Part shown: piece by piece, positions 17,320 through 64,000 of the stretch | Layout: every line of letters starts with the position of its first letter | Position numbering within the stretch: the stretch's first letter is position 1 | Assembly (NCBI GenBank): GCA_025611195.1 | Contig: GCA_025611195.1_4718.2 | DNA length: 64,000 nt | Source of the DNA: a phage | Strand: one strand, 5' to 3' | The notes under the pieces: model-generated | Databases searched by the model: none | Told to the model about the DNA's origin: nothing | What the model saw: the letters and a program-made list of their open reading frames with translations, nothing else | Translations under genes and position numbers: made by a program

Positions 17320-17368
17320 GGTGAAGCTGATTACTGCATTGCTTCACCTAGGTAATATAGCCGTGAAA
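17320..17368 (-). promoter_or_regulatory. candidate early-type promoter: TTTCACGGCTATATTAC followed by 8-bp stem-loop
   Basis: Minus strand reads TTTCACGGCTATATTAC (plus 17352..17368), then hairpin GGTGAAGC...GCTTCACC (17320..17348), about 73 nt upstream of ATG 17278. The same 17-mer recurs at 45952..45968 and, as a variant, at 63985..64000. Confidence 0.5.
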
Positions 17369-45944: not shown

Positions 45945-45968
45945 CACGTAAGTAATATAGCCGTGAAA
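45945..45968 (-). promoter_or_regulatory. candidate early-type promoter: TTTCACGGCTATATTAC (second copy)
   Basis: Exact 17-mer shared with 17352..17368, minus orientation, about 56 nt upstream of ATG 45895, followed by the imperfect palindrome TTACGTGAGTAA. Lies in the divergent intergenic region 45896..46111. Confidence 0.5.
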
Positions 45969-51110: not shown

Positions 51111-52685
51111 TTACAATTCAAAATCTTCATCGATAACGCGCTGGGTAAGCACTTTGTCGCTGAAGAACTCCACCTTGCGCTGATGGTATTTACGATGCGC
51201 TTCGATAGAAGTACATACCAGATACCAGAAGGTTGGCGTCATTCCTTCAAACTTCCCTTTCAGCTGACGCAGTCGCCCCAACACCTGAATGTTACCGGTT
51301 CGTGACCCCATCGCTAACGTCATGAACGCCATCACCAAGTCAGGAAGGTCGATACCCGTACCTGCCGATTTCACCGTCGTAACGCTAATATCGTTATCCA
51401 ACAAGACCATGAAATCTTCTTCAGCCGTATAAGGACCGATCTCTAACTCAGGAATACGTTCACTAAGGTAATGCGACAACGACTTACACATATCGACGGT
51501 TGCACAATACACCAGCATCTTCATACCTTCCTGATACTGGTTCATGAAACCTTTGATGATAACCGTATAGATGAAGTTAAAATACGCGAGTTTGAGTTGC
51601 TTGTTCTTCATGATAGACTGTTCGAATATCGTGTGAGAATAAGAACCCCCAAACCCTTTATATCTGACTTTATCTGTACTGCGTAGTCGATACGTCACGG
51701 CATTTACCGCAATGTATTTCTTGTATTCGCCTTTCGCATAACGGGCTTCTTTCGGATACATCAAATACAACATCCGCTCGATGAACGGATCATCGGACAC
51801 CGCCGTTGCTGACAGATAGATGATTTCCGGAATACTAGCGTAACACTTGACCTTAAACAAGAAATGCAATGCTTCATGGCACTCGTCATGAATCAGAAGG
51901 CCTATGCCGGTCTTTTCCCAAAACTCAGCGGGATGGAAGGCATATGGCGCAACGCAGTTATTCTTCTCGTAGTCCGCAATATAACGTTGGAACATGTTCA
52001 AGGAGAACAATGCGATTTTGAAGTCGAGTTCGCCTTGTTCAACCAAGGTTTGAAACTCCAACATACTGTAACGAGGAATGTCAGGATGCGGTGGATCCTC
52101 CTTAGCGTTCCCGCGTATCTCGATAACATCCCCTGGTTCCATCCCGAAGAAGTTCAGTAGTGAGCTTCGCCAACCTGGCATGTATCTCGGCGACAGAATG
52201 ATACCCGTCCGCACACCGCGTCGGAAGGTAATCTCCTGCGACATGGCCGTTTTTCCCGACCCCGTTTGAGCGGTGTTTAGGCTCATTCTGAAGGGGGTAT
52301 CCTTACCCCCGTCCATGTACTCCAACCATTCTTGCTGATCTTCACGCCATGGGAACTTCCATTTCTTTACGAACTCCACTTCTTTACCTGGTGCCGGATC
52401 GTGGTAAACGATTTCCAACCACTCTTTTCGTATCCCTCGGGAAAAGATAAAATCCAAAAACGATTTCAACTGTTCGCGGAGTAAGTATACCTCACTATAA
52501 TCGCTTCTTGCCGCGGCATACGTGTTTATGGTATCGGTAACCATTCTCCGTGTACGAGGGTCGCGCCGTTTCCTCAGATGCAAACAACGGTCTCGAAGGT
52601 AATGGCCGATAAGATGGGCAAATCGAAGTCCGTATCCGCTCAGCCTCATGCCGTGCGAGAAGACATCGATACGAGCTAACTTCAT
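51111..52685 (-). CDS. SF2 DExH-box helicase
   Basis: Motif I QTGSGKT, motif II LLIHDECH, motif III YLSATAV, motif VI-like QVLGRLRQ. ATGA overlap with the upstream gene. Confidence 0.75.
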   Translation of the reverse strand: MKLARIDVFSHGMRLSGYGLRFAHLIGHYLRDRCLHLRKRRDPRTRRMVTDTINTYAAARSDYSEVYLLREQLKSFLDFIFSRGIRKEWLEIVYHDPAPGKEVEFVKKWKFPWREDQQEWLEYMDGGKDTPFRMSLNTAQTGSGKTAMSQEITFRRGVRTGIILSPRYMPGWRSSLLNFFGMEPGDVIEIRGNAKEDPPHPDIPRYSMLEFQTLVEQGELDFKIALFSLNMFQRYIADYEKNNCVAPYAFHPAEFWEKTGIGLLIHDECHEALHFLFKVKCYASIPEIIYLSATAVSDDPFIERMLYLMYPKEARYAKGEYKKYIAVNAVTYRLRSTDKVRYKGFGGSYSHTIFEQSIMKNKQLKLAYFNFIYTVIIKGFMNQYQEGMKMLVYCATVDMCKSLSHYLSERIPELEIGPYTAEEDFMVLLDNDISVTTVKSAGTGIDLPDLVMAFMTLAMGSRTGNIQVLGRLRQLKGKFEGMTPTFWYLVCTSIEAHRKYHQRKVEFFSDKVLTQRVIDEDFEL

Positions 52686-54688
52686 AACGTGAATACATCC
52701 TCCGGTTTAGGTTCTTTGCGCGGTAAAAGCATGTAGTCGATCGGATGATCCGGCTTCATGGTTGGGATATAACTGTTCGGGTTTTGGAACGCATCCAGTT
52801 GCTCTTGGTGAGCGAACTTCATACTCAAGGAGCGCATGTTCATGTTCTTCTTGAAGGTGCTGAAGTATCGTGTTGTTCCCTGTTTCGGCATGCGATAATC
52901 TTTCGTGTGTGGCGAACGAATCATGCTGGCGTAGAGAATAACATCGAGATGCGAAAGGTTCATTCGCAGACGCTGTGCGCACAAGCGATGCCAATAGTAC
53001 AGCACGTTTGCAACTTCTTCCGGTGTTGCTTCGTCTTCCGAGAGGAACCCGGCACTGAAAGAACCTTTCCCGAATTTGAACTCACGTTCGATTTCTTTTG
53101 CGTATTCCATCATGTTTTTGTGGATTAACGGCATCTGGAATAACGTACGTGAATTGTCCCAATGTTTCAAGTCGAAAATCACAATCCCGTCAGACGTCAC
53201 TTCCCAGCTATGGCGTTTAAGATAACGGATAAACGCTTTACTCGGTACAACAGGACGTCCGCAGAAATCGAAATTGACTTTGAGCTTACGATAGCTTTCA
53301 TCTTTCCTGTCGTAAATCTCCATATCGCAAAGCGTCATGTTAAACAGACGCTGTGGTATCAGCGAACTGATTTCTTCCGCTTCGGCTACATCGTACAACA
53401 TGTTCGCAAGACCTAACTTCATCTTAATCAGCACGTGTTTACCTTTCAGCTCACGTGCGAGTTTGATGTCGTTCATGTTCTGGCTGTAACGAAGGATATG
53501 TTGATATTCCGGTGGGATTGGTGCTGTAGAGACCGTTGACGAACCGTCGTGGTGTTTGGTAGAAAGAATGTTCTGCGTTACCTGTTGCGAGCAGGTACGC
53601 GCTGCGCCATCGCCGACATTATCGGTTAATGCGAAGTTATGACTTAATTCACCATAACACGTTGTGCATACCCCAGCAGGATCGGGATGATGACAATAGT
53701 TAACGGAGCGCATACGCACTGTGGTGCCGATCAATTCTTTCATATGTGGTTGTATCGCTACCAACGAACCGTCATCACGAATAATGAATCGGCCGTGGAA
53801 GCCACGCAGGTCGGTCTCATCACGGATTGGCATCGGGATGGTCTCTCTACTACCACAATCACCAGGATGTAGTCGTTGCACAACCGCTGTCGCTATCTGA
53901 AGTTCACGACCGAAATATTCAGACTTTTTAATCTGCTCTTTGTTGAACAGCAACGATTTCGCCGCAGAACGACTTTCTTTCAAGCTGTCGGGAAGAGAGA
54001 TCAAACCTGACGCGTACGACCGCATTACTGGATCACGGAATATCTCGGAGTTAATATCGGTCAAGAATCCACGCATCCCAATACACTGCAGCACCTGCCC
54101 AATCGAAACGTGTTCGGTTCTTACCGCACGTGCAATAGGGTTTGCATGTAATGTTTTATCGGTGCTCAGTACCTTTGTCAGTTTCTTGTATGCGCTTTCG
54201 ATACCTTCGCGGGTGGGTTCCGCTTCAGCGATGATTTTCTTAACTTCGGGGTGTACGGTAATCTGATAAAAATCATCCGCACAAATAGTTGTTACGTATT
54301 CCTCCAACGCATACGTAAAGAAGTTATACACGTTGTTAAACATATCGAACAGTGCTTTCCAGAGAACCTCACGATTCTCTTGTGGGTAAGCATACATGCA
54401 TTGACGATACGCTGCGCTTTGCAACGCTACCGATGAACCCGCTGTAAACTTACGTTTATCAACCAGGTTCTCTTTTGTCAATGGTGTCTCAGGATACATG
54501 CGATGTACAGACCAGTGCATGTAACTAAAGAAAATGCGTCGCGCACGTAATTCATGAACGCCATCGTCCATCTCGATATATACACGGTCATTAGGCTGTG
54601 CCCACTCGAATACCTCATCAACCGGCCAGTGCATAAGCTCGCGTGCCCTCACACGACGTTTCGTGGTGGTCGTCTGTGTTGTAGTCAT
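52682..54688 (-). CDS. RNA polymerase beta'-like subunit, C-terminal fragment (multisubunit phage RNAP)
   Basis: Colinear similarity to bacterial beta' region F through the trigger loop: CIGMRGFLTDINSEIF (beta' AGMRGLMAKPDGSIIE), bridge-helix-like SRSAAKSLL, VRMRSVNYCHHPDPAGVCTTCYGEL (beta' [22 protein letters not shown]). No NADFDGD motif, so the N-terminal part is encoded elsewhere. Confidence 0.7.
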   Translation of the reverse strand: MTTTQTTTTKRRVRARELMHWPVDEVFEWAQPNDRVYIEMDDGVHELRARRIFFSYMHWSVHRMYPETPLTKENLVDKRKFTAGSSVALQSAAYRQCMYAYPQENREVLWKALFDMFNNVYNFFTYALEEYVTTICADDFYQITVHPEVKKIIAEAEPTREGIESAYKKLTKVLSTDKTLHANPIARAVRTEHVSIGQVLQCIGMRGFLTDINSEIFRDPVMRSYASGLISLPDSLKESRSAAKSLLFNKEQIKKSEYFGRELQIATAVVQRLHPGDCGSRETIPMPIRDETDLRGFHGRFIIRDDGSLVAIQPHMKELIGTTVRMRSVNYCHHPDPAGVCTTCYGELSHNFALTDNVGDGAARTCSQQVTQNILSTKHHDGSSTVSTAPIPPEYQHILRYSQNMNDIKLARELKGKHVLIKMKLGLANMLYDVAEAEEISSLIPQRLFNMTLCDMEIYDRKDESYRKLKVNFDFCGRPVVPSKAFIRYLKRHSWEVTSDGIVIFDLKHWDNSRTLFQMPLIHKNMMEYAKEIEREFKFGKGSFSAGFLSEDEATPEEVANVLYYWHRLCAQRLRMNLSHLDVILYASMIRSPHTKDYRMPKQGTTRYFSTFKKNMNMRSLSMKFAHQEQLDAFQNPNSYIPTMKPDHPIDYMLLPRKEPKPEDVFTL

Positions 54689-54809
54689 TATTGCTTTCCG
54701 ATTTAAATGGTTTTATCATACGGTTTACCAAATCCGTTGGACTTTACTATCGTTGTGATAGCATCGGGAATCCCTTCCCTTAGGTTATGTAGGTGTTAAT
54801 ATATCTCCA

Positions 54810-54831
54810 CTGCTGTCGTAAAGGTCAGCAG
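54810..54831 (-). promoter_or_regulatory. stem-loop CTGCTG/CAGCAG just after the stop of 54834..55319
   Basis: 6-bp stem with 10-nt loop. On the minus strand it is followed by GGAGATATATTAACACC, a TATATTA-containing variant. Confidence 0.35.
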
Positions 54832-54833
54832 CA

Positions 54834-55319
54834 TTATCCAGCTTCCTGTTGTATAGCGTATGGATCCATAGCGTCTGACATATTCGCAAAAACGGTGAGA
54901 ATAAACCCCTTTATCTGTCTCACCTCGGTTACACGAAGCCCTTTATCATTACGGTATACGTTTTCTTCACCAACCAACTTCGGCCTGATAGCATAAACCC
55001 CATCAACAAACGGGAATGTCGGATACGGATAAATACCGATACGAATGATGTTTGGATGATCGCCTAGAAGGTCACGCCCAAATGTATCTACTCTACCGTA
55101 AACCGTTCCATCCACACCCTCCACTTCAATGAGATCATTTCGAATATCCTGAAATAGCTGCTCTAATGTGTCGGCGGGGTACGTATATGCGACACCTAAC
55201 GCTGGGTCCTCAATGGTTTTGACACTGAATCCGTTAAGCCAAACAATCTGTTCATCCGCCCATGTTTCTTCATATACCGTTAATCCATCGCCGTATATGT
55301 TGGCGCGTGCTATCTCCAT
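54834..55319 (-). CDS. hypothetical protein
   Basis: 161-aa ORF with AAGAGGAAA before ATG. Confidence 0.5.
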   Translation of the reverse strand: MEIARANIYGDGLTVYEETWADEQIVWLNGFSVKTIEDPALGVAYTYPADTLEQLFQDIRNDLIEVEGVDGTVYGRVDTFGRDLLGDHPNIIRIGIYPYPTFPFVDGVYAIRPKLVGEENVYRNDKGLRVTEVRQIKGFILTVFANMSDAMDPYAIQQEAG

Positions 55320-55433
55320 AATCTCATTTCCTCTTATACGTTCGGATAGATGACATGTTGGATATACGTTGCCTTTGCATATATTGCTTTATTTCCGTCA
55401 GAAATAACGGAAAATAAAAACAACGACATAGTT

Positions 55434-55463
55434 CCCTCCCACCTCCACATGGGAGAGGGAGGG
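55434..55463 (-). promoter_or_regulatory. stem-loop CCCTCCC/GGGAGGG (16-nt loop) after the stop of 55477..55842
   Basis: 7-bp stem; a second hairpin TTTCCGT...ACGGAAA lies at 55391..55412. Confidence 0.5.
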
Positions 55464-55476
55464 CTATTCGTGTTTA

Positions 55477-55842
55477 TTACTCTATGCTGTCTTCTTCAAC
55501 ACAATCCTCTTCGGAACCGTCGAACGTTTTCTGCACCGCAGTGGTATCCCAGTTGGCAGCGTAATCAGCCATCGCTTCGCGCAACGCTTCTTCACCAGCA
55601 TCGCCAGCCAGATCAAGCACAACCAAACCTTGCGCGACGTTTTGAGCGACAGTATCAATAACGGTTGCATCTTCTTCAAAACTACGTACCGGTTCAATGG
55701 TGCCTACATCAACAGCATAGTTCGTGGTCGCTGTAAGCACGGCGACTTGTAGTGCATCGCTATTATCATCATCATGCAGTGCTGCTTCAATACCGATTGG
55801 ACGGGCCAGTTCTTGCAGTGTTAATTTGCGAATTAAGTTCAT
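55477..55842 (-). CDS. small acidic protein (acidic trio A)
   Basis: Shares LTLQELAR with the 55866..56216 product and VLDL.G with the 56335..56748 product. Confidence 0.5.
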   Translation of the reverse strand: MNLIRKLTLQELARPIGIEAALHDDDNSDALQVAVLTATTNYAVDVGTIEPVRSFEEDATVIDTVAQNVAQGLVVLDLAGDAGEEALREAMADYAANWDTTAVQKTFDGSEEDCVEEDSIE

Positions 55843-55865
55843 TATGTTTTTTCCTCAGGTGAATG

Positions 55866-56216
55866 TTAGCAATCGTTTAAAACTTTTTCGATACGATGGT
55901 TGACGAGTTCATTGAACGACTCTTCAACTTGTTCGATAATTTCATCAACGTCGATATCTAATTGTTGGGGTTGGATAACATGCTCTTTCATGGTTTCTAA
56001 CCAGTATTCGGCTTTAACCATAACGTTAGCTACTTGTTCGACCTGGCTGCGTATGTCGACGATCTGGCAGTCAGGATTTTTAATATCGATGATGTGTCCG
56101 TGCTGATTGATAAAGCCTAGTTTATTCGACGCCTTTACCGCATCGCGGGCAAGTTCTTGCAAGATTAAATTATTTACGTAGTTCACTGCTACGGAACGAT
56201 TTTCTTTATCACTCAT
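55866..56216 (-). CDS. small acidic protein (acidic trio B)
   Basis: Start moved to ATG 56216 (AAGAGGA upstream); the ORF-track N-terminal extension runs through the stem-loop. Confidence 0.5.
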   Translation of the reverse strand: MSDKENRSVAVNYVNNLILQELARDAVKASNKLGFINQHGHIIDIKNPDCQIVDIRSQVEQVANVMVKAEYWLETMKEHVIQPQQLDIDVDEIIEQVEESFNELVNHRIEKVLNDC

Positions 56217-56284
56217 ACCAGGGATCCTCTTTAAGTCTTCACATTCTAGTGTTAAGCAGTTAAAATAAACCGTCCCTTTAATCA

Positions 56285-56323
56285 GCATAAACATCCTCCT
56301 CCTACCATGCGGGCAGGAGGAGG
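56285..56323 (-). promoter_or_regulatory. stem-loop CCTCCTCCT/AGGAGGAGG followed on the minus strand by TTTATGCTG
   Basis: 9-bp stem 56295..56323 after the stop of 56335..56748; TTTATGC at 56285..56291 (minus), about 70 nt upstream of ATG 56216. Confidence 0.55.
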
Positions 56324-56334
56324 CGTAATATGCA

Positions 56335-56748
56335 TCAGAAAGGTGTGCGATTCTTATATTCGAATAATGTCTGAAGGACACATCGTGTTAACGAGTTTTG
56401 TAATTCGATACGTCCTTGTTCTCCGAACAGATCCAACACCATCATCCCTTTTGCTGTTTTCTCTGCCACTTCTTCACAAATCTGTAAATTGTACATGTCG
56501 TCATTGCCGAGTTCCTTTCGACCGATCGAACTGACACGCATCAACTCACCTTTACTATCGCGAACATCGGAGAATGCATCATAGACCGCATCGATGTTCG
56601 CAGAACGCGTCAAACCCTCCGCTTCGCGCCACTCTCGATATGTACCATCAAGCGTTTGTTCCTCGCCCGAGGTTGTTGATTCGCTGTTGGTGGTTGGGCG
56701 AATTAAATGGGGTGTTATCATCGCGATCACGCTGTCGTAATGGTCCAT
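56335..56748 (-). CDS. small acidic protein (acidic trio C)
   Basis: 137-aa ORF immediately downstream of the beta-like gene. Confidence 0.5.
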   Translation of the reverse strand: MDHYDSVIAMITPHLIRPTTNSESTTSGEEQTLDGTYREWREAEGLTRSANIDAVYDAFSDVRDSKGELMRVSSIGRKELGNDDMYNLQICEEVAEKTAKGMMVLDLFGEQGRIELQNSLTRCVLQTLFEYKNRTPF

Positions 56749-56759
56749 CGTTTACCTCG

Positions 56760-58928
56760 TTAGCTTTCGCAGTCATCTGCGTCGATGATTTGTCCGCCAG
56801 CAACGTTCAGTTGATGATACAGAATCCTCAACGCACGGTTGCCACCAATGGGATACTTCTCGAAGTTGGTCGCAATAGGAATCGCTGACGGCTTATCGGT
56901 CGCATAGATGCTTTCAGTGATGCTATCCACCTGTTTTGGATTGTTCGCATAGTCCATAAAGACGCTCGCAAACCATCCGCCAGCGAAGGCGGTAACTTCG
57001 CGATGTTCAGATTCGCCACAGTAACGAGTCGGTTGCTCTTTACCGGGAGAACTGTATTTATCGCTATTACTGAGTTTCGACGGTAATCCATGCGCTTGCA
57101 ATTTAGGGATACCCACAGCCGACCAATCGTTCGCCGTCTTCTCCAACATCATGATGTACGTGTCACCGATCGCAATATCGTTCTTGGTTGTCCGCCACTG
57201 TCCAGAACGCCCGCGGTACCGTACAGGACCTTTCTTCAACGGGAACTCACGAATCAGATTCTCCATACGTTCTGAACCTGCTGCGATACTGTCCGTCGGG
57301 ATATAAACTTCCGTACCGTGGCGCTGTACGTACCGTAAATGATCCCATTTATCCTCATTCGTGATACAGTATTTTTCAACAACCTGTTCCACGAACTCAG
57401 GACTGACGATATAGTAATAGCGCATCAGTGTGTTCCAGGCGGTCTCCAGATCGCCTGCATCCATCACTGGTTTCAGTTCACGCATGATCTGATCACCAAC
57501 GCCGTTGATGTATGGCGCATTAACACGACTTAAACTCATCCTTTTAATTACCGTGCTATCGTCAAACATAAAGTCCGCAACGTTACCCCATTGGTCAACC
57601 GGCATTTCATCGTCTTCCATGATGTCGGTTACGACGAATTTATCGCCTGCCATACCGGTGAATTTAAACCCGATGCCTGGAACAACGTCATACGTGTATG
57701 TGATGGTCACACGCCAATCATCAAGATTCTCTTTACGGTAATCGCGGGTCGGTAACACATGGCGTAGCTGTCCGTTAGGATTGCGGATATCAATACCGTG
57801 TTCAGCGTCAGCCAGGTTCAACCACCACATCACCGTTTGATGATGACGTATCGGCGTACCAACGCGTTCACGTTCGTACTTACGAACAGCATCCTGAATT
57901 CGGGTGTAAAGCAAACCGATTGCGTTCTCGTATTTCAGGAATTGACGATACGGAGGACGCATCTTCTCTTCCATCATAATCGCGCGCTCGCGGGCTTGAC
58001 GTCCAGAACGACGATGTCGATCGCTGACAACATCGATATCCGTTACACGCGCATTCGGTTCAGCGTAAGTGAGATCATCGTAAACATAATCCACACGCTG
58101 AAGATTACACGTCATCATGTCAACAACGCTGAGGATAGGATCTATTTCGCGTGTTGCTGCAAGTAACCCATCCTTACGAATACGCTCACCGTTCTCGGGT
58201 ATCGCTTGATATACCTCATCATCGCCGTAGAGATTAATTGGATATCGTGATTTACCTGATGTGATCGTTCGCTTCTCAATGCCGGTACTGGTGAAATGCT
58301 TCAATACACCACGACGGGCAACGCCACCATCTTCAATACACTGGTAGAAGCTACCGAAACACACCTTGCAATCGCGACCGTAACCCCACTCACGTGTTTC
58401 TTGATTGATCGCTGGGCTTTCCATCAAACGAGAATATCGCGGTACGATCTGGCCTCGACGAAGGGAATGGAACAAGTTGGTTGGTCGAAAACGGAAACCG
58501 TACTGCTGATGCATGATGTGATGCTCAGGCACTTCAAGCAAGCGTAGCTCGTGACGGTTACCATCCTCTTGGTTTTCGTACAGCACGTAATGCATCGTGT
58601 TTGTTTTGATGCTGTTTGCTGTATGTCCTGGTTGAAACCGTGGAATGATATCTATGATGCGAGATTCAACTGGAAACTCTACTGACCAAGTGTTCTGTCC
58701 GTACTGGTATTCAATCCCCGTCGTTAGTCGGGACGGCTTCGCATCTTTGATAACCAACGCTTGGCTAAGATGTCCACCAAACATCGCAGCGCGCTGTGCT
58801 GAGTTATAATGCAATAGCCCGTTAAGTCCAGTCCCTACGCCAGTATACTCCTGTTTAATGGGAATGATTTTACCTTCAGCGATTGCCTGCTTCACAGATT
58901 CATAAAGAGGTTTTTCTTTATAATGCAT
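56760..58928 (-). CDS. RNA polymerase beta-like subunit, C-terminal fragment (multisubunit phage RNAP)
   Basis: Colinear matches to the beta catalytic region: GMAGDKFVV (beta GDKMAGRHGNKG), EDDEMPVDQWGNVAD...KRMSLSR (beta EDMPYDENGTPVD...SRMNIGQ), IGDTYIMMLEKTANDW (beta GYMYMLKLNHLVDDKMHA), GESEHREVTAFAGG (beta GEMEVWALEAYGAA). Start moved to ATG 58928 (AGGAAG upstream). Confidence 0.65.
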   Translation of the reverse strand: MHYKEKPLYESVKQAIAEGKIIPIKQEYTGVGTGLNGLLHYNSAQRAAMFGGHLSQALVIKDAKPSRLTTGIEYQYGQNTWSVEFPVESRIIDIIPRFQPGHTANSIKTNTMHYVLYENQEDGNRHELRLLEVPEHHIMHQQYGFRFRPTNLFHSLRRGQIVPRYSRLMESPAINQETREWGYGRDCKVCFGSFYQCIEDGGVARRGVLKHFTSTGIEKRTITSGKSRYPINLYGDDEVYQAIPENGERIRKDGLLAATREIDPILSVVDMMTCNLQRVDYVYDDLTYAEPNARVTDIDVVSDRHRRSGRQARERAIMMEEKMRPPYRQFLKYENAIGLLYTRIQDAVRKYERERVGTPIRHHQTVMWWLNLADAEHGIDIRNPNGQLRHVLPTRDYRKENLDDWRVTITYTYDVVPGIGFKFTGMAGDKFVVTDIMEDDEMPVDQWGNVADFMFDDSTVIKRMSLSRVNAPYINGVGDQIMRELKPVMDAGDLETAWNTLMRYYYIVSPEFVEQVVEKYCITNEDKWDHLRYVQRHGTEVYIPTDSIAAGSERMENLIREFPLKKGPVRYRGRSGQWRTTKNDIAIGDTYIMMLEKTANDWSAVGIPKLQAHGLPSKLSNSDKYSSPGKEQPTRYCGESEHREVTAFAGGWFASVFMDYANNPKQVDSITESIYATDKPSAIPIATNFEKYPIGGNRALRILYHQLNVAGGQIIDADDCES

Positions 58929-58959
58929 AGGACTTCCTATTATCGAATTGAGGTACGTC

Positions 58960-59313
58960 ATGTCTAACACGCCCCTGAACGACTTTCTTAAGACAAACCC
59001 CGATGACCTCATCCACGATCTTGATTTCAGGAACGTTGTTGAGATGCATCTGGAATATTTCAAAAATGCCGGACTGGTCTCTACGATAGACATACCACCC
59101 GAACGCGCCTACGAATTCGATGGTAACTTTTATGGATTGTGTCGTGTTCTGCTCGGCGAGGGCAGTGAATCAATGCACTGGATCACCATGAGACTCAATG
59201 GTTATCGCGACCCTACGGAATACACGGCCGATGTTCTAACCATGAAGATTGTCGATACAAGCGCAATCAACACATTAAAACAGCAGTACCGCACAATCCA
59301 CTACAGCGCTTAA
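58960..59313 (+). CDS. hypothetical protein (lone plus-strand gene)
   Basis: MSNTPLNDFLKTNPDDLIHDL...; GAGGT 6 nt before ATG 58960. Divergent from the beta-like gene with a 31-bp spacer. Confidence 0.5.
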   Translation: MSNTPLNDFLKTNPDDLIHDLDFRNVVEMHLEYFKNAGLVSTIDIPPERAYEFDGNFYGLCRVLLGEGSESMHWITMRLNGYRDPTEYTADVLTMKIVDTSAINTLKQQYRTIHYSA

Positions 59314-59318
59314 GATAA

Positions 59319-59358
59319 CCCTCCCACAGCGTAAAGCGTAGGGAGGGCATTTATGCCG
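59319..59358. terminator. stem-loop CCCTCCC/GGGAGGG at convergent junction, followed on the plus strand by ATTTATGCCG
   Basis: 7-bp stem 59319..59347 with 15-nt loop between the plus gene stop (59313) and the minus gene stop (59379). Confidence 0.5.
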
Positions 59359-59378
59359 TCGTTCGTTGGCTTAGCACA

Positions 59379-60659
59379 TCAGAAACGATTTACAGTACGT
59401 CCTGTCCACGCACTCAGGATGTTGTTACGTTCCATCTCAGCCCGACGACGTAAACCGTTTGGCGACTGCGGTGCTGGCGGCATCCCCCACCCAGCAGGCT
59501 GCATACCCATACCAGGCCAAGCGGTATTATTGAACATCGTGCCGTTACGTTCCGCGACACGATTCATCAACGCATCAAACGTGCTATTACCTGCCGGTTG
59601 GTTACCACCACTTTCCCACTGATTAGGTTGAACAGGTGCGGTTTTACCTAACAGGTTATCAATCACGTTACTTGTTGCAGCAGGACGCGGTTGCATACCT
59701 TCATGTGCAGCTGCTGATGGATTTGGCTTAACCGTCGGCTGCGGACGACTGTTCAGCGTTACACCCATGTTGTATTTCGCTGGTGGAATCTGACCACGAT
59801 GTTGGGTAATCGGCTCAAAATCCTCGACCCAGGTAACATCGCAATAACCGTTCTCTTTACCGTCGTACTTATCACCAAACAGTTTGATGAGATTGTTCAG
59901 CGGTTCCATCAGCTTCGCGAAGCTGTGGATAAGACAATCGAAATAGGGAGCATGAGGATCGCTTGACCCAGCATTATACGTTTCACTTACTTCACCGGAG
60001 TGAGGGATAACGTACTCAACCAGGTTTCTCAGCATGTTAAGATCTTTCTTGGAAATCTCAACACCACACCAGTACGTTTTCTTATCTTTCGTGCTGATGT
60101 GTTCCTCTTCCATGAACGGGAAAGTAACTACCGCAACACGGGTCATCTTCTTACCCATGTAGGTTGCGCCGGTACGACGAAGATAAATTTTAGACAGCGT
60201 ATACGGTGTGTCGCGTTTCAACCAAACGGTAACCAGTTTGCCCAGGGTCGTTAATGTTTTATCGCTGGCGTCCGCAAGGATGTTGAAGAACTCTTTTTGC
60301 TTCGGTCCGAAACGTTTTGCTTCTTTAGGGTTGATTGCGGTTTCAACCATCCAAATCAGCATAGAACACAGCGTGGCGTTAAAACGAACAACCATCGCGC
60401 GACGCAGGAACTGAAGTACTTCCGATTCGCCGTTCATCACGTCTTCACTTAACGGATGGAACAACACGCGTTCAGCTAACTGGTTTCCGGTACGAACTTC
60501 GGGAACCGGCATCAGCAACGGCATGCTTTCCACGGTAGCGGCAACTGCAACAACTTTACCATCCCCATCCGTAAAACGATATTCTAATTCGTGGGCATCA
60601 TTCTCAAAATAGTTAACGCTTTGCAGCGCTTTGCGATAAGCTTCAATAAGCTTCGACAT
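59379..60659 (-). CDS. hypothetical protein with Gln/Pro/Gly-rich C-terminal tail
   Basis: 426-aa ORF with AAGGAAA before ATG. Confidence 0.55.
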   Translation of the reverse strand: MSKLIEAYRKALQSVNYFENDAHELEYRFTDGDGKVVAVAATVESMPLLMPVPEVRTGNQLAERVLFHPLSEDVMNGESEVLQFLRRAMVVRFNATLCSMLIWMVETAINPKEAKRFGPKQKEFFNILADASDKTLTTLGKLVTVWLKRDTPYTLSKIYLRRTGATYMGKKMTRVAVVTFPFMEEEHISTKDKKTYWCGVEISKKDLNMLRNLVEYVIPHSGEVSETYNAGSSDPHAPYFDCLIHSFAKLMEPLNNLIKLFGDKYDGKENGYCDVTWVEDFEPITQHRGQIPPAKYNMGVTLNSRPQPTVKPNPSAAAHEGMQPRPAATSNVIDNLLGKTAPVQPNQWESGGNQPAGNSTFDALMNRVAERNGTMFNNTAWPGMGMQPAGWGMPPAPQSPNGLRRRAEMERNNILSAWTGRTVNRF

Positions 60660-60687
60660 ATTACGTTTCCTTTTCTTTTACGTCAAC

Positions 60688-60708
60688 GGTCCCCCACAAC
60701 AGGGGACC
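60688..60708 (-). promoter_or_regulatory. stem-loop GGTCCCC-CACAACA-GGGGACC
   Basis: 7-bp stem after the stop of 60715..62301. Confidence 0.45.
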
Positions 60709-60714
60709 TATGGA

Positions 60715-62301
60715 TTAGAAGTTGCCTTTGGTAGTTACCGCATCCACCAGGTTAAACAAATCAACACTCAGCTTGTAAACCTCCTGCTGGCTACGGTTGA
60801 GCAGTGGGCTGTACGCGGACGGGTTGATGTTCGGCATGGTGTACGGAATCGGTGAAGAGCCGTCAACGCTGATCTTGAACTGGCTGTCCAGGAACAGGTT
60901 GATTGCGCCACTCACCATAACCGCGTTCGGGTTGTTACCCAACATGGAGGGCAGGATATTGGTAATCATGTCAGAGCGCATCTGTTCAGCAGCGCGGTTA
61001 CAATCATACCCTTTAATGAACGGTACAGCGTCAGTAACCGCAACCGCCCATTGCCCAGGCATGATACCTAGTTCTGGATGGCCGTGGTTATCAGCAATGA
61101 AACGGAACGATTCCAACATGCGATACGTCATCGCAGCAGGCATCATCGCAGCAAGCGACGAACAGTACAATGTTGGGTAATCGATAACGTCCCAGCTCTG
61201 GCTATCGGTCGGCATCCAGCCAAACTCAGTGGTTGCTGATGTACCGCGACGAGCTTCCACATACGGGAATAACGTTAATACGTCACGGATATGTTCGCCG
61301 AACATCCGTTTCATGTCTACCCAACTCATGCTACCGCTGAAGGCGAATCCCTCATCACGCATGATCGCACCGAATACCGGATGTGCAACCAACGGTTCTT
61401 CACGAACAGCTTGAGCTGCTTCTACGTAAATATCCTCATTCTCTGCGCTACCTGGATGAGACCCGCTTTCGTACGTCTGACGAATAGCCCCGACGTTATC
61501 GAAGGCTTTTCTTAGATAGATGGTTGGGATGTTCGTATCAGCACTCGCTGGTTTGATTTTCTCCGTTGCGAAACACATTGCTGCTTCCACACCACGAAAA
61601 ACCGGTTCCGGTTGCGATTGATAGGAAGAGCGATGGACCACATCAGCGTAGGCTGGATCGAACTGCTGCATCACGTTCTGCATGGCTGGGTCCATGAACT
61701 GGTTATCAAAACCACCATTGCCTACCCAACGTGCTGTCGACGCATAAGTCAGCGTATCCTGAACACGAGTACTGAACTGAACATCACGATTAACAGGGTC
61801 GTATGCGCCAGTCAAAAGGTTCGTTGCGTCCATCGGGGTCGCGCGAACGATTTGCTTACCGAACATATCCGTTGTGGTTGTTTCGGTTACCTGGATTACA
61901 TTCGTGAAGAAGAACACCAGTTCGTTCGGTAGATCGATAGAACGCGTTGTAAACGCATCGAGGCTTACCGAATGGTCGGTGTATCCAGAAATGTAATGGA
62001 CGCGCTTGGTTCCTGGTGCAAGGGCCAAGGATTCTTCCACAGCCATCATGAAATGGAAACGACGTGTGCCCCAACCATTCGCAATCTCCGAAACCCCCTC
62101 AGGTTCTGCAGACTGCTGTAACAAACCGGTTGCAAGCTTATTGATTGCTGATGGGGTTGTTGCCGTACCGAACTTCGTCGTGTTAATAAAGTCTTCGATG
62201 CTACGCATGCTATCTGCATGGAATCGTAGTGGACGACGTTGTACGTTGTTGTACGGTGCGGTTTCAACCATCAGTATTTCACGAACATTCATCGGGATCA
62301 T
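60715..62301 (-). CDS. hypothetical protein (528 aa)
   Basis: Long ORF with AAGAGGAAA before ATG; one of two adjacent 528-aa genes. Confidence 0.6.
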   Translation of the reverse strand: MIPMNVREILMVETAPYNNVQRRPLRFHADSMRSIEDFINTTKFGTATTPSAINKLATGLLQQSAEPEGVSEIANGWGTRRFHFMMAVEESLALAPGTKRVHYISGYTDHSVSLDAFTTRSIDLPNELVFFFTNVIQVTETTTTDMFGKQIVRATPMDATNLLTGAYDPVNRDVQFSTRVQDTLTYASTARWVGNGGFDNQFMDPAMQNVMQQFDPAYADVVHRSSYQSQPEPVFRGVEAAMCFATEKIKPASADTNIPTIYLRKAFDNVGAIRQTYESGSHPGSAENEDIYVEAAQAVREEPLVAHPVFGAIMRDEGFAFSGSMSWVDMKRMFGEHIRDVLTLFPYVEARRGTSATTEFGWMPTDSQSWDVIDYPTLYCSSLAAMMPAAMTYRMLESFRFIADNHGHPELGIMPGQWAVAVTDAVPFIKGYDCNRAAEQMRSDMITNILPSMLGNNPNAVMVSGAINLFLDSQFKISVDGSSPIPYTMPNINPSAYSPLLNRSQQEVYKLSVDLFNLVDAVTTKGNF

Positions 62302-62302
62302 T

Positions 62303-63889
62303 TTATTTTTTTCCTCTTAAATTTACTACATGTTCATTTAATCGAACAACTAATTGCACAAGCTGCTGACGGATATCTGCTGGACAAAGCATCAATCCTT
62401 TACGATCAGCTGGGACTTTCTCAAGGATTTCCGGACCTGCTGCGGAAACATCCCAATCCCATTCACAAAACGCATCAGCCACCATGTTAATACCGACAAC
62501 CGGTAAAGTTGTACGTTCATCTTCATACATGGCATGCGGATACAATTTATTGACGGTAATGACCTCCTGTGGTTTTAACTGATGGATAATCTGGTAAACG
62601 TCGTCGCGTTTAACCTGGATACCTACGGTCAGCGCAGCCAGTTGAGGAAAACCCCAATGGTCTAATAAACACGCTGCGATCGCTAACGCTTTTGCCTGAT
62701 GTACGGCTTCAATCGGTGATAGACTTCTCGCTGGAAGATGGCTATCAAGCAACCATTGTGCCAATGCTCGGCATCCACGGTTGATTGGTTTTAACTCAAC
62801 GCTGTCATCATGTTTAGCGTAGGTGTATCCGTCGTAACGTTTTGCGATACGCGCATACATGTCTTCAACTTTACCGTAAGGTGCCGTTTCATCGATGTCG
62901 TGCAGCACCCGTTCCATCTGGGTAAGATACGCGATGTCGAGAATGAGTACGCGCGGTGAACGTTTATCTTTCACCATCAACGCATCGATCACGCCTTGGC
63001 TATCTTCGTCTTGCGCGTTCCCTCGCGGGGTTTTCTCGCGAATCGGTCCGCTGAAACGTCGTTCCGTACAAAGGTTATTCACATAGCTAAAGATCAACGT
63101 TACCAGGTGCGTACAACTTACCAACACCCCATCTTTAACGACAGGCTGTACGGCTTGGTCCAAATCGCGTACTGCGAGACGGCGAACGATGGCTTGTGAA
63201 CGCAACCAACCGGGTACTTTCTCCGTCGACATGTAATCCACTGTCATCGACAGCGTGATCTTTTTATCACCTGTCTGCGCACGGATATAATCTTCCAGTC
63301 GGTCGTAAGCAGCGATATCATGAATGCGTGTTTTATACATTAACGACATAGCTACTTCTTCTTTACGTACCGTCCCGTACGTTTTCCCTGCGTCAATCAG
63401 AAACTCCGCCCAAATCGGCACCATCAGACGGACGTAGATCGCTAACGCCGTTAACTCAACGTAATCATTTCGTAAATAGGTTTTCTCGGGTATATCATCC
63501 TCACCTAATGTTGTTTTCATGTCCGGCGGTAATTTTACCCAACCTGGGGTATTACACAACGCCAGAATCTCTTCATACACAACCGGTTTGTAAATTTCAC
63601 CAACAGCGCGGCTCAACTCCTCCATTTGTTGTTGTGGAGCAATGTAGTTATCCATCGCTTCACGTGCTTTAACGAACCCTTCGAAGATGTCGTCGATTCG
63701 ACGTGGGTTCTTTTGTTCTATCCAGGCGAGATACTTGTTAATCTCCCGCATCTGATTGCTAGCCATATCCCCATCAATCTTGATGTAACCCTGGCCTGAA
63801 AATTCCACGGTACGTCCGTCACGATGTTTGATGAGATAGTGATCCAGCTTTTCTTTGCCTTGCGTCGTAATGACGGGCACTATGTGCAT
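62303..63889 (-). CDS. hypothetical protein (528 aa)
   Basis: Long ORF with AAGAGG before ATG; preceded by the TATATTAC-like element. Confidence 0.6.
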   Translation of the reverse strand: MHIVPVITTQGKEKLDHYLIKHRDGRTVEFSGQGYIKIDGDMASNQMREINKYLAWIEQKNPRRIDDIFEGFVKAREAMDNYIAPQQQMEELSRAVGEIYKPVVYEEILALCNTPGWVKLPPDMKTTLGEDDIPEKTYLRNDYVELTALAIYVRLMVPIWAEFLIDAGKTYGTVRKEEVAMSLMYKTRIHDIAAYDRLEDYIRAQTGDKKITLSMTVDYMSTEKVPGWLRSQAIVRRLAVRDLDQAVQPVVKDGVLVSCTHLVTLIFSYVNNLCTERRFSGPIREKTPRGNAQDEDSQGVIDALMVKDKRSPRVLILDIAYLTQMERVLHDIDETAPYGKVEDMYARIAKRYDGYTYAKHDDSVELKPINRGCRALAQWLLDSHLPARSLSPIEAVHQAKALAIAACLLDHWGFPQLAALTVGIQVKRDDVYQIIHQLKPQEVITVNKLYPHAMYEDERTTLPVVGINMVADAFCEWDWDVSAAGPEILEKVPADRKGLMLCPADIRQQLVQLVVRLNEHVVNLRGKK

Positions 63890-63962
63890 AACAACCTCTT
63901 TTCGCGGTTCCCTGTTAAAACGTCTTCGGCGACGTCTACCACAAAGGTAACATTTATGTCGC

Positions 63963-64000
63963 CTCTATGACTTTGTTCATAGAGGTAATATAAGCGTGAA
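63963..64000 (-). promoter_or_regulatory. candidate early-type promoter variant: TTCACGCTTATATTAC next to 8-bp stem-loop (truncated by window end)
   Basis: Minus strand reads ...TTCACGCTTATATTAC (plus 63985..64000) then hairpin CTCTATGA...TCATAGAG (63963..63984), about 96 nt upstream of ATG 63889. Same layout as 17320..17368. Confidence 0.4.

Follow-up and report, generated by a model that had tools for sequence, protein, structure and literature searches.

Our analysis indicates that the two adjacent 528-aa genes near the end of this window, by which we mean the whole 64,000-nt stretch of phage DNA analysed, are very probably to be read together as an early gene cluster in which the upstream gene (gene A) encodes a gp68-type subunit of the non-virion RNA polymerase (nvRNAP), the downstream gene (gene B) encodes PicA/Imp1, and a putative early-type promoter lies upstream. 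With genes A and B a conserved cluster of early genes begins, and no evidence that we found contradicts either assignment. What we show is homology, similarity of predicted folds, shared gene order and conservation of the motif; for the biochemical roles we rely on published work on phiKZ, PhiPA3 and Goslar.

A first-pass annotation of the same DNA had described two genes of equal length separated by one nucleotide, behind an early-type motif, and had guessed that they might be major structural or nucleus-shell components of a phiKZ-like phage. The description of the pair is accurate and can be completed by the strand, which it left out: both open reading frames run on the minus strand. The structural guess fares differently for the two genes, as we discuss below.

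Table 1. Coordinates of the features discussed, in window positions.
Feature	Position	Strand	Remarks
Promoter-like element TTCACGCTTATATTAC	63985..64000	minus	early-type TATATTAC core at 63985-63992; abuts the window end
Perfect 9-bp hairpin CCTCTATGA-acaaag-TCATAGAGG	63962..63985	minus	leader of gene A
SD-like AAGAGG, gene A	63895..63900	minus	5 nt before the ATG; identical in Goslar
Gene A, 528 aa	62303..63889	minus	ortholog of Goslar gp175, homolog of phiKZ gp68
AAGAGG box, gene B	62313..62318	minus	within the 3' end of gene A, 11 nt before the gene B ATG
Gene B, 528 aa (525 if Met4 start)	60715..62301	minus	ortholog of Goslar gp174 (PicA/Imp1)
GC-rich hairpin GGTCCCCT-guugu-GGGGGACC	60688..60708	minus	just 3' of the gene B stop, before the next gene
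gp70-like gene, 426 aa	59379..60659	minus	homolog of Goslar gp173, phiKZ gp70, PhiPA3 gp64
nvRNAP beta'-like subunit gene	56760..59093 (longest ORF)	minus	homolog of phiKZ gp71-73, Goslar gp171
nvRNAP subunit gene	52682..54688	minus	homolog of phiKZ gp74, Goslar gp165

The phage and its gene order

E. coli phage Goslar matches the region at 95% DNA identity over 99% (megablast), and, at 94.5% identity, positions 52294-63953 of the window and Goslar 149137-160790 are collinear; three consecutive genes correspond to Goslar gp175, gp174 and gp173. The source is thus an E. coli jumbo phage of the nucleus-forming kind, a chimallivirus like Goslar, which bears out the first-pass placement among phiKZ-like phages; Goslar is itself an established nucleus-forming phage (PMC11087766). 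We do not expect the ChmA gene inside the 64-kb window. Genes A and B are real genes, and purifying selection relative to Goslar is strong in both (dN/dS 0.019 and 0.028, respectively).

The next gene downstream matches PHIKZ070 (BLASTP 2e-24) and belongs to PHROG 3520; its product, whose C-terminal tail is of low complexity and rich in M, P, Q and G, has no match in the PDB or in Pfam. The PhiPA3 counterpart gp64 is found at the nuclear shell, with Goslar YP_009820858.1 listed as its homolog (PMC10643120). Partner nvRNAP genes follow on the same strand 1.6-9 kb downstream: phmmer against the PDB assigns the beta'-like gene to 7ogp_C (E=6.9e-86) and the gp74-like gene to 7ogp_D (E=6.5e-87), both in agreement with the Goslar annotation. 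The true start of the beta'-like gene is probably about 55 codons downstream of that of the longest reading frame, since with the start used in the Goslar record the product has 722 aa. Homologs of gp55 and gp123 presumably lie outside the window.

The order gp67, gp68, gp69, gp70, RNAP is found in phiKZ, PhiPA3, pEa_SNUABM_48, Eowyn, RSL2 and LucasX, and part of it (ChmC-like, A-like, B-like, gp70-like) in two Logan contigs, L009 and L010. The order ChmC/Imp6, gp68, PicA, gp70, RNAP beta' is kept in every chimallivirus examined.

Gene A is a homolog of phiKZ gp68

Gene A is 99.1% identical in amino acid sequence to Goslar gp175. A phmmer search of the PDB matches it to PHIKZ068 (7ogp_B, 9rjs_B) at E=2e-28, residues 23-518 of the query aligning with 20-517 of the chain, and searches of the translated phiKZ and PhiPA3 genes give 2e-33 and 3e-30, respectively; the protein falls in PHROG 3209 (4e-68 over residues 8-519). 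The AlphaFold2 (AF2) model is moderately confident (pLDDT 73, pTM 0.48, from an alignment of 7 sequences), and its leading Foldseek matches are chains of the same subunit: 8que_B at E 3.3e-20, 9rjs_B at 2e-8 and 7ogp_B at 9e-7, together with 7ogr_B. The superposition on 7ogp_B (TMt 0.82, rmsd 3.4) includes the C-terminal domain. AR9 gp226 (7um0_A/7s01_A) comes next, at E 2e-4 to 4e-4 with probability 1.00, and besides phiKZ gp68 and AR9 gp226 the model has no Foldseek match in the PDB below E 0.6. Taken together, sequence and predicted fold argue that gene A is homologous over its full length to phiKZ gp68, which serves the non-virion RNA polymerase as its sigma-like fifth subunit. The structural guess of the first-pass annotation therefore fails for the upstream gene. 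That annotation had also held that a confident assignment to an unrelated enzyme family would refute it, and a subunit of the nvRNAP is an assignment of that kind.

The roles of phiKZ gp68 in the nvRNAP have been described (PMC4666361, PMC12809450), the genes for nvRNAP subunits are early genes (PMC4666361), and a GFP pulldown of PhiPA3 gp62 recovered all five subunits (PMC10643120). Stable binding to the polymerase core and a need for the subunit in transcription are known from phiKZ (PMC4666361) and PhiPA3 (PMC10643120). We found no experiment on the protein itself in the literature on Goslar gp175. In phiKZ gp68 the C-terminal domain is reported to contact the DNA backbone through R425, R429, R449 and N452 (PMC12809450). 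The phmmer alignment, at roughly 25% identity, places a gap of gene A opposite the R425-R429 loop and replaces R449 by D and N452 by T; basic residues do occur in gene A near these positions (VKRDD, DERT).

Gene B is PicA/Imp1

Gene B and Goslar gp174 share 98.5% amino acid identity across all 528 residues. Three of the eight substitutions (T225S, P228Q, P229S) fall in or just past a low-confidence loop at 218-227. The phiKZ homolog PHIKZ069 is found by BLASTP at 9e-17 (residues 4-522) and PhiPA3 gp063 by tblastn at 1e-16 with 98% coverage, the corresponding phmmer values being 2e-20 and 5e-24; the protein belongs to PHROG 3141 (9e-46). Word-indexed homolog searches returned only 3 and 7 proteins, and an exhaustive HMMER scan was needed for the PicA family, giving 818 cluster representatives at E<=1e-3. 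For both genes the first-pass statement that no motif could be recognised holds as far as Pfam goes, where neither has a match, but not for PHROG, which has a family for each.

The AF2 model of gene B is confident (pLDDT 88.3, pTM 0.87). In BFVD it is matched by 15 chimallivirus proteins, all from jumbo phages, at TM 0.72-0.83, whereas Foldseek against the PDB gives no match (best E 0.26, TM ~0.1). The predicted fold thus appears specific to the family, with no relatives outside the chimalliviruses, in agreement with bioRxiv 2024.03.27.586873, where the genetics of Imp1 are also reported. Many homologs begin at the residue equivalent to Met4, so that gene B may be 525 aa long rather than 528.

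On the strength of these matches we identify gene B as PicA/Imp1, an essential protein-import factor associated with the shell. Goslar gp174 has been named Goslar PicA; it is seen as a punctum at the periphery of the nucleus, and its knockdown lowers plating about 10,000-fold (PMC11087766). Microscopy and dCas13d knockdown have shown the punctate localisation of the Goslar protein at the shell and the need for it in cargo import and nucleus maturation (PMC11087766). YP_009820859.1 is listed as the homolog of PhiPA3 gp63 (PMC10643120). The first-pass guess of a nucleus-shell component was therefore right in placing gene B at the shell and wrong in taking it for an abundant component, since PicA makes one or two puncta on the nuclear shell and functions in import rather than as an abundant part of the lattice (PMC11087766; bioRxiv 2024.03.27.586873).

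The upstream element and the hairpins

An exact TATATTAC precedes the start codon of gene A by 95 nt, in support of the early-type element that had been noted there. The identical element lies 57 nt upstream of gp175 in Goslar, and in phiKZ, PhiPA3 and Eowyn TATATTAC is found 30-45 nt upstream of the gp68 orthologs; pEa48, L009 and L010 carry the variant CTACATTAC. We take TATATTAC to be the core of the phiKZ early promoter, partly on the basis of its presence upstream of gp68 in phiKZ and PhiPA3. By itself the 8-mer is no commoner in the window than chance predicts (3 observed, 2.4 expected). However, all three of its copies share the 16-nt form TTCACGNNTATATTAC, which appeared in none of 100 shuffles, and all three are intergenic, on the minus strand and 56-95 nt upstream of an ATG. 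When three mismatches are allowed the 16-mer falls to chance level (9 found against 8.2 expected); hence it is only the exact extended motif that is significant, not TATATTAC by itself. These counts suggest TTCACG-N2-TATATTAC as a putative 16-nt early-promoter-like consensus of the Goslar lineage. A literature search on the TATATTAC string brought up nothing relevant, and scans of 59000-64000 for sigma-70 promoters and intrinsic terminators gave counts at or below shuffle expectation.

The hairpin in the leader of gene A lies in some 38 nt of sequence (63945-63982) absent from Goslar in the alignment; this insertion, between motif and ATG, accompanies the difference in spacing between the two phages. 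The stretch terminates in a degenerate copy of the motif (ATAAATGTTACCT). A degenerate second copy, ATAAATGTTAC at ~63947-63957, stands nearer to gene A and may be the variant that the first-pass annotation had in mind. The 95-nt leader RNA folds at -28.3 kcal/mol (z = -3.3). The hairpin behind gene B folds at -19.2 kcal/mol (z = -2.75), has no U-tract and was not called by the intrinsic-terminator scan. A hairpin and a TATATTAC-type motif precede the gp68-PicA-gp70 trio in the ten genomes and contigs examined.

The junction and the alternative readings

The two genes meet at TAA-A-ATG, where one spacer base, 62302, separates them; reading from the AAGAGG box of gene B one passes a run of seven A, the stop of gene A, the spacer and the ATG of gene B. 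The gap ranges from -1 to 25 nt across the ten genomes and contigs examined and is 1-3 nt in the Goslar clade. Since a gap of 1-3 nt and the SD-like box are also kept in L009 and L010, relatives at about 50% identity, the arrangement suggests that gene B is translationally coupled to gene A.

Could the identical length of the two reading frames (528 codons each), adjacent and on one strand, reflect a tandem duplication? We regard this as the least probable of the alternatives, one that hardly deserves to be entertained. A BLASTP comparison of A with B gives nothing significant (best E 0.024 over 54 residues), profile-profile hhalign on the families gives a probability of 0.1%, and reciprocal phmmer yields no cross-matches, on which grounds paralogy was rejected; moreover, the model of gene A is mostly helical whereas that of gene B is alpha/beta with long beta hairpins, and their Foldseek match sets do not overlap. 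The lengths are also unequal in other chimalliviruses (A/B 521/557 in phiKZ, 525/548 in PhiPA3, 528/525 and 531/530 in two metagenomic relatives), and their equality here is therefore a coincidence. The junction itself raises the further question of whether some A-B fusion protein is made by +1 frameshifting or transcriptional slippage on the A7 run, the frame of gene B being open from 6 codons 5' of its ATG and standing at +1 relative to A across GAGGAAAAAAATAAAATG. But the A-run is missing at the junction in both L010 (GGGAAGATTTAAAATG) and L009 (AAAGGAAAGTAAGAAATG), a lack of conservation that led us to reject the fusion, other chimalliviruses have gaps of 16-25 nt, and phiKZ gp68 was purified as a polypeptide of ~59 kDa (PMC4666361), so that we give a fusion very little credence.

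Equally hard to sustain is the proposal that both proteins are abundant constituents of the virion, such as major capsid or sheath proteins, or of the shell lattice, like chimallin. Both are indeed mid-sized, conserved in phiKZ-like phages and without Pfam domains, PicA is associated with the shell, and in BFVD the gene B homolog of Ralstonia phage RP12 bears the name 'Major capsid protein'. For gene A, however, the proposal is refuted by the match to an RNA polymerase subunit in both sequence and fold. For gene B the model is confident and yet without any PDB match, and therefore shows no HK97 capsid, sheath or chimallin fold; such folds were rejected on the empty Foldseek result, and the label on the RP12 homolog is probably a misannotation. 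The comparison with capsid, sheath and chimallin families that the first-pass annotation had proposed thus comes out against its guess: by Pfam, PDB sequence search and Foldseek neither protein resembles any of them, the PDB sequence search with the two genes returning nothing except gp68. The main text of the paper on the Goslar virion structure and proteome makes no mention of gp174 or gp175, the PhiPA3 homologs gp61, gp63 and gp64 were absent from earlier virion mass spectrometry (PMC10643120), and one or two puncta do not make a lattice.

Discussion

How would the two genes be expressed, and what would their products do, if gene A is the gp68-type subunit and gene B is PicA/Imp1? In phiKZ-like phages the injected virion RNA polymerase reads promoters of this early type. 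Transcription probably begins at TTCACG-N2-TATATTAC, and genes A and B would share a single transcript, probably extending over the gp70-like gene as well, translation of gene B likely being coupled to that of gene A via TAA-A-ATG. The gene A product, if it acts as phiKZ gp68 does, would sit on the split beta/beta' core where a bacterial sigma factor sits, grip the upstream DNA and help to open the transcription bubble, and it would be needed for middle and late transcription within the phage nucleus. The gene B product would gather on the chimallin shell in one or two puncta and license selected proteins for nuclear import through cargo-specific surfaces.

It is tempting to see more than inherited synteny in the adjacency of the two genes, namely coupled synthesis that could bring nascent PicA and nascent gp68-like subunit side by side, with PicA recognising the polymerase via this subunit and assembly thereby being linked to import licensing. 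We consider this speculative and rather unlikely. As far as its abstract goes, a September 2026 preprint (PMC13622101) holds that import of the nvRNAP requires Imp1 and Imp7 and depends on subunit-subunit interactions, and that abstract names no subunit as the contact of Imp1.

Both genes are already known, and because the two proteins have published identities no further discovery effort is needed. In the Goslar record the labels 'nvRNAP sigma-like subunit (gp68 family)' and 'PicA/Imp1 nuclear import factor' can now take the place of 'hypothetical protein', and the consensus TTCACG-N2-TATATTAC, together with the conserved hairpin and motif before the trio, could be of use for mapping transcripts and designing knockdown guides.

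With respect to known systems, gene B shows no difference of substance from the PicA/Imp1 proteins (Goslar gp174, phiKZ gp69, PhiPA3 gp63, 201phi2-1 gp125): it is homologous to gp63 and gp69 over the full length and has the same fold and genomic position, only its start codon (Met1 or Met4) being ambiguous. Gene A is to be compared with phiKZ gp68, whose orthologs include PhiPA3 gp62 and Goslar gp175 and whose structure is available as chain B of PDB 7OGP, 7OGR, 8QUE and 9RJS. It resembles gp68 in aligning over the full length at ~25% identity (528 vs 521 aa), in lying between ChmC/Imp6 and PicA/Imp1, and in having TATATTAC upstream and beta'-like subunit genes nearby; it differs in that the identity is low and that the phmmer alignment sets a gap against the R425-R429 loop and other residues against R449 and N452. 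A more distant counterpart is gp226 (PDB 7S01/7UM0 chain A), the promoter-specificity subunit of the nvRNAP of AR9, which is not known to form a nucleus. The likeness of gene A to gp226 is weak but specific and lies in the predicted fold, there being no sequence match between the two. In the AR9 polymerase gp226 takes the sigma position (PMC12809450) and reads a uracil-containing promoter on the template strand, whereas in phiKZ it is the beta-like gp123, not gp68, that reads the TATG motif (PMC12809450).

Results

Our analysis indicates that both genes of the adjacent pair described in the first-pass annotation are already known: gene A is the gp68-like gene for the sigma-like fifth subunit of the phage's non-virion RNA polymerase (nvRNAP), and gene B encodes the protein called PicA or Imp1. 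The ORF listing confirms the coordinates originally given for the two, and adds the strand that had been left unstated, which is minus. The description of equal-length genes one nucleotide apart also holds, since the junction reads TAA-A-ATG with a lone spacer base at 62302. Read from the sequence, an AAGAGG box lies 5 nt ahead of the ATG of gene A and another 11 nt ahead of the ATG of gene B, within the 3' end of gene A.

Principal features of the locus and related elements in the window
Feature	Coordinates	Strand	Remarks
Gene A	62303..63889	minus	ORF, exactly 528 codons, upstream member
Gene B	60715..62301	minus	ORF, exactly 528 codons, downstream member
Third cluster gene	59379-60659	minus	homolog of Goslar gp173, phiKZ gp70, PhiPA3 gp64
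Partner subunit, phiKZ gp71-73 homolog	56760..59093	minus	7ogp_C, 6.9e-86
Partner subunit, phiKZ gp74 homolog	52682..54688	minus	7ogp_D, 6.5e-87
16-nt element TTCACG-N2-TATATTAC	17352-17367, 45952-45967, 63985-64000	minus	three exact copies
Hairpin, 8-bp GC-rich, GGTCCCCT...GGGGGACC	60688-60708	minus	directly after PicA stop; without U-tract

Megablast against the phage collection returned Escherichia phage vB_EcoM_Goslar as the sole match to 60300-64000 (95.1% identity, 99% of query), and Goslar 149137-160790 is collinear with window positions 52294-63953. The Goslar counterparts, gp175 and gp174, are each 528 aa and labelled 'hypothetical protein', with gp176 upstream and gp173, gp172 and the 'RNA polymerase beta subunit' gp171 downstream. 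Gene A differs from its counterpart by 69 nt and 5 aa (dN/dS 0.019) and gene B by 85 nt and 8 aa (dN/dS 0.028). Judged from these sequence comparisons, the two genes are real and evolve under strong purifying selection, and the source phage is a close relative of Goslar, not Goslar itself.

Gene A has no Pfam match and falls in PHROGs family 3209, whose function is given there as unknown. A phmmer search of PDB sequences matches it to PHIKZ068 (7ogp_B, 7ogr, 8que, 9rjs) at E=2e-28, aligning residues 23-518 of 528 with 20-517 of 521. Its AlphaFold2 model is of moderate confidence (pLDDT 73.4, from a shallow alignment of n=7 sequences); Foldseek gives it six significant PDB matches and no others, namely four phiKZ gp68 chains (3.3e-20 for 8que_B; TM 0.82 on target for 7ogp_B) and two AR9 gp226 chains (2e-4 and 4e-4). 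In phiKZ, where the nvRNAP subunits are early, gp68 is an early gene product and the fifth subunit, tightly bound to four beta/beta'-like polypeptides (PMC4666361). Structures place it in the sigma-factor position, where it stabilises upstream DNA and distorts it at the site of bubble formation; it is the beta-like gp123 that reads the TATG promoter motif (PMC12809450). The PhiPA3 ortholog, gp62, localises to the interior of the phage nucleus, and a pulldown with it recovers the full set of five polymerase subunits (PMC10643120).

The longest ORF of the nvRNAP beta'-like gene at 56760-59093 has 777 aa, against 722 aa annotated in Goslar gp171, and homology to phiKZ gp71-73 starts at residue 88; the true start is probably an internal ATG.

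Gene B has neither a Pfam match nor a PDB sequence match, and its PHROGs family, 3141, is also of unknown function there. By tblastn it is 98.5% identical to Goslar gp174 and matches PhiPA3 gp063, among others, weakly but over the full length; the tblastn match to PHIKZ069 is confined to the N-terminal part, but in pairwise BLASTP it spans residues 4-522 (9e-17). Morgan et al. named phiKZ gp69 PicA and identified Goslar PicA as gp174; each phage nucleus shows one peripheral punctum of the protein, and dCas13d knockdown of PicA arrests nucleus maturation, with clearing then requiring an about 10,000-fold higher titre (PMC11087766). Kokontis et al. independently found the same protein, Imp1, in which distinct surfaces license different cargos and which binds gp67 (Imp6) directly, and not gp70 (bioRxiv 2024.03.27.586873). 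In an exhaustive HMMER scan, 818 cluster representatives pass E<=1e-3; among the matches listed, almost all are 450-565 aa long.

The suggestion that these might be structural or nucleus-shell proteins was partly right, in that gene B (PicA) is associated with the shell; gene A is a polymerase subunit. As for a capsid, sheath or chimallin fold in gene B, we reject it, since a confident model (pLDDT 88.3, pTM 0.87, alignment of n=76 sequences) has no relative in PDB by Foldseek (best E 0.26, TM ~0.1). In BFVD the model matches 15 jumbo-phage proteins at TM 0.72-0.83, the next match being at E 0.013, and the predicted fold is specific to the PicA family. One BFVD entry with this fold, A0A1L7N194 of Ralstonia phage RP12 (TM 0.80), bears the UniProt name 'Major capsid protein', probably a misannotation because nothing in PDB matches the fold of the PicA model.

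Could the equal lengths reflect common descent? BLASTP finds no significant similarity between A and B, phmmer no cross-matches, and hhalign of the family profiles a probability of 0.1%; secondary structure is predicted to be largely helical in A and alpha/beta in B. The A/B lengths are 521/557 in phiKZ, 525/548 in PhiPA3, 528/525 in L009 and 531/530 in L010 (metagenomic contigs Logan SRR22177369 and SRR29937422), and many B homologs start at the equivalent of Met4. The two proteins are unrelated and their equal length is a coincidence. We also considered A-B fusion by slippage, as the B frame is +1 relative to A and an A7 run lies directly ahead of the gene A stop (62302-62318, minus strand). 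As a designed feature this is rejected, the run not being kept in L009 and L010.

The order SbcD-like, gp66, gp67 (ChmC/Imp6), gp68-like, PicA, gp70-like, small reverse gene, RNAP beta' recurs in phiKZ, PhiPA3, Erwinia pEa_SNUABM_48, Klebsiella Eowyn, Ralstonia RSL2 and Xanthomonas LucasX. L009 and L010 show the partial order ChmC-like, A-like, B-like, gp70-like, with A-B pairs at ~50% and 43% protein identity, separated by 3 and 1 nt; they are divergent Goslar-clade phages that the searched phage collection does not contain. Throughout, the A-B gap is short (-1 to 25 nt) and the gap ahead of the gp68-like gene is 125-342 nt.

The third cluster gene's product has a C-terminal low-complexity tail rich in M/P/Q/G (e.g. 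WPGMGMQPAGWGMPPAPQSP), similar in composition to the phiKZ gp70 tail. Its PhiPA3 homolog, gp64, is shell-localised; phiKZ gp70 did not co-purify with Imp1 (bioRxiv 2024.03.27.586873).

In the genomes whose upstream sequence was read, the gap ahead of the gp68-like gene holds a hairpin after the preceding gene and then, 30-60 nt short of the ATG, a TATATTAC-type element. The early-type motif reported upstream of gene A is indeed present as exact TATATTAC, as it is ahead of the phiKZ, PhiPA3, Eowyn and Goslar orthologs; pEa48, L009 and L010 have CTACATTAC, and RSL2 and LucasX looser forms. We take TATATTAC to be the core of the phiKZ early-promoter consensus, an identification our literature search for the motif did not yield. 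In phiKZ, the virion polymerase recognises an extended AT-rich consensus common to the early promoters (PMC10914365).

The window has three exact copies of the 8-mer, a number not above chance; all three carry TTCACGNNTATATTAC, found in 0/100 shuffles. The resulting 16-nt elements are intergenic and each precedes, by 56-95 nt, a minus-strand ATG that has an RBS; corresponding copies lie in two Goslar loci (L001 11648 and 16926; L003 14291 and 43294). TTCACG-N2-TATATTAC is a candidate consensus for early promoters of the Goslar lineage. The motif ahead of gene A lies at the very end of the window, so that its downstream side is what is seen. There the leader contains ~38 nt absent from Goslar (63945-63982, minus strand), with a perfect hairpin of 9 bp and, at the end, a second, degenerate motif copy; the distance between intact motif and ATG is thus 95 nt, compared with 57 nt in Goslar, where a degenerate copy lies farther upstream. 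The hairpin after PicA was not called by a generic terminator scan and may serve in RNA stability or processing.

Discussion

The value of these results is a correct annotation of both genes, with the putative early-promoter consensus as a by-product. A five-step picture, from promoter to import, is most likely. The injected virion polymerase would read the early promoter, giving a single transcript that covers A and B and, probably, the gp70-like gene, on which, as the spacing suggests, B would be translationally coupled to A. [quoted passage not shown] A reservation attaches to this: R425, R429, R449 and N452 of phiKZ gp68, reported as DNA-backbone contacts, lack position-for-position conservation in the phmmer alignment. 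Protein B, nearly identical to the Goslar protein for which this was shown, would sit on the chimallin shell and license nuclear protein import.

How might the two products be related? The abstract of a 2026 preprint (PMC13622101) states that Imp1 and a newly described factor, Imp7, are both required for import of the nvRNAP itself, which also depends on interactions between subunits, so that on this account the products of A and B meet functionally. A speculative and rather improbable reading is that the tight gene pairing is a sign of direct gp68-PicA contact. The Imp1 locus has been described as gp67-70, with gp68 as part of the polymerase (bioRxiv 2024.03.27.586873).
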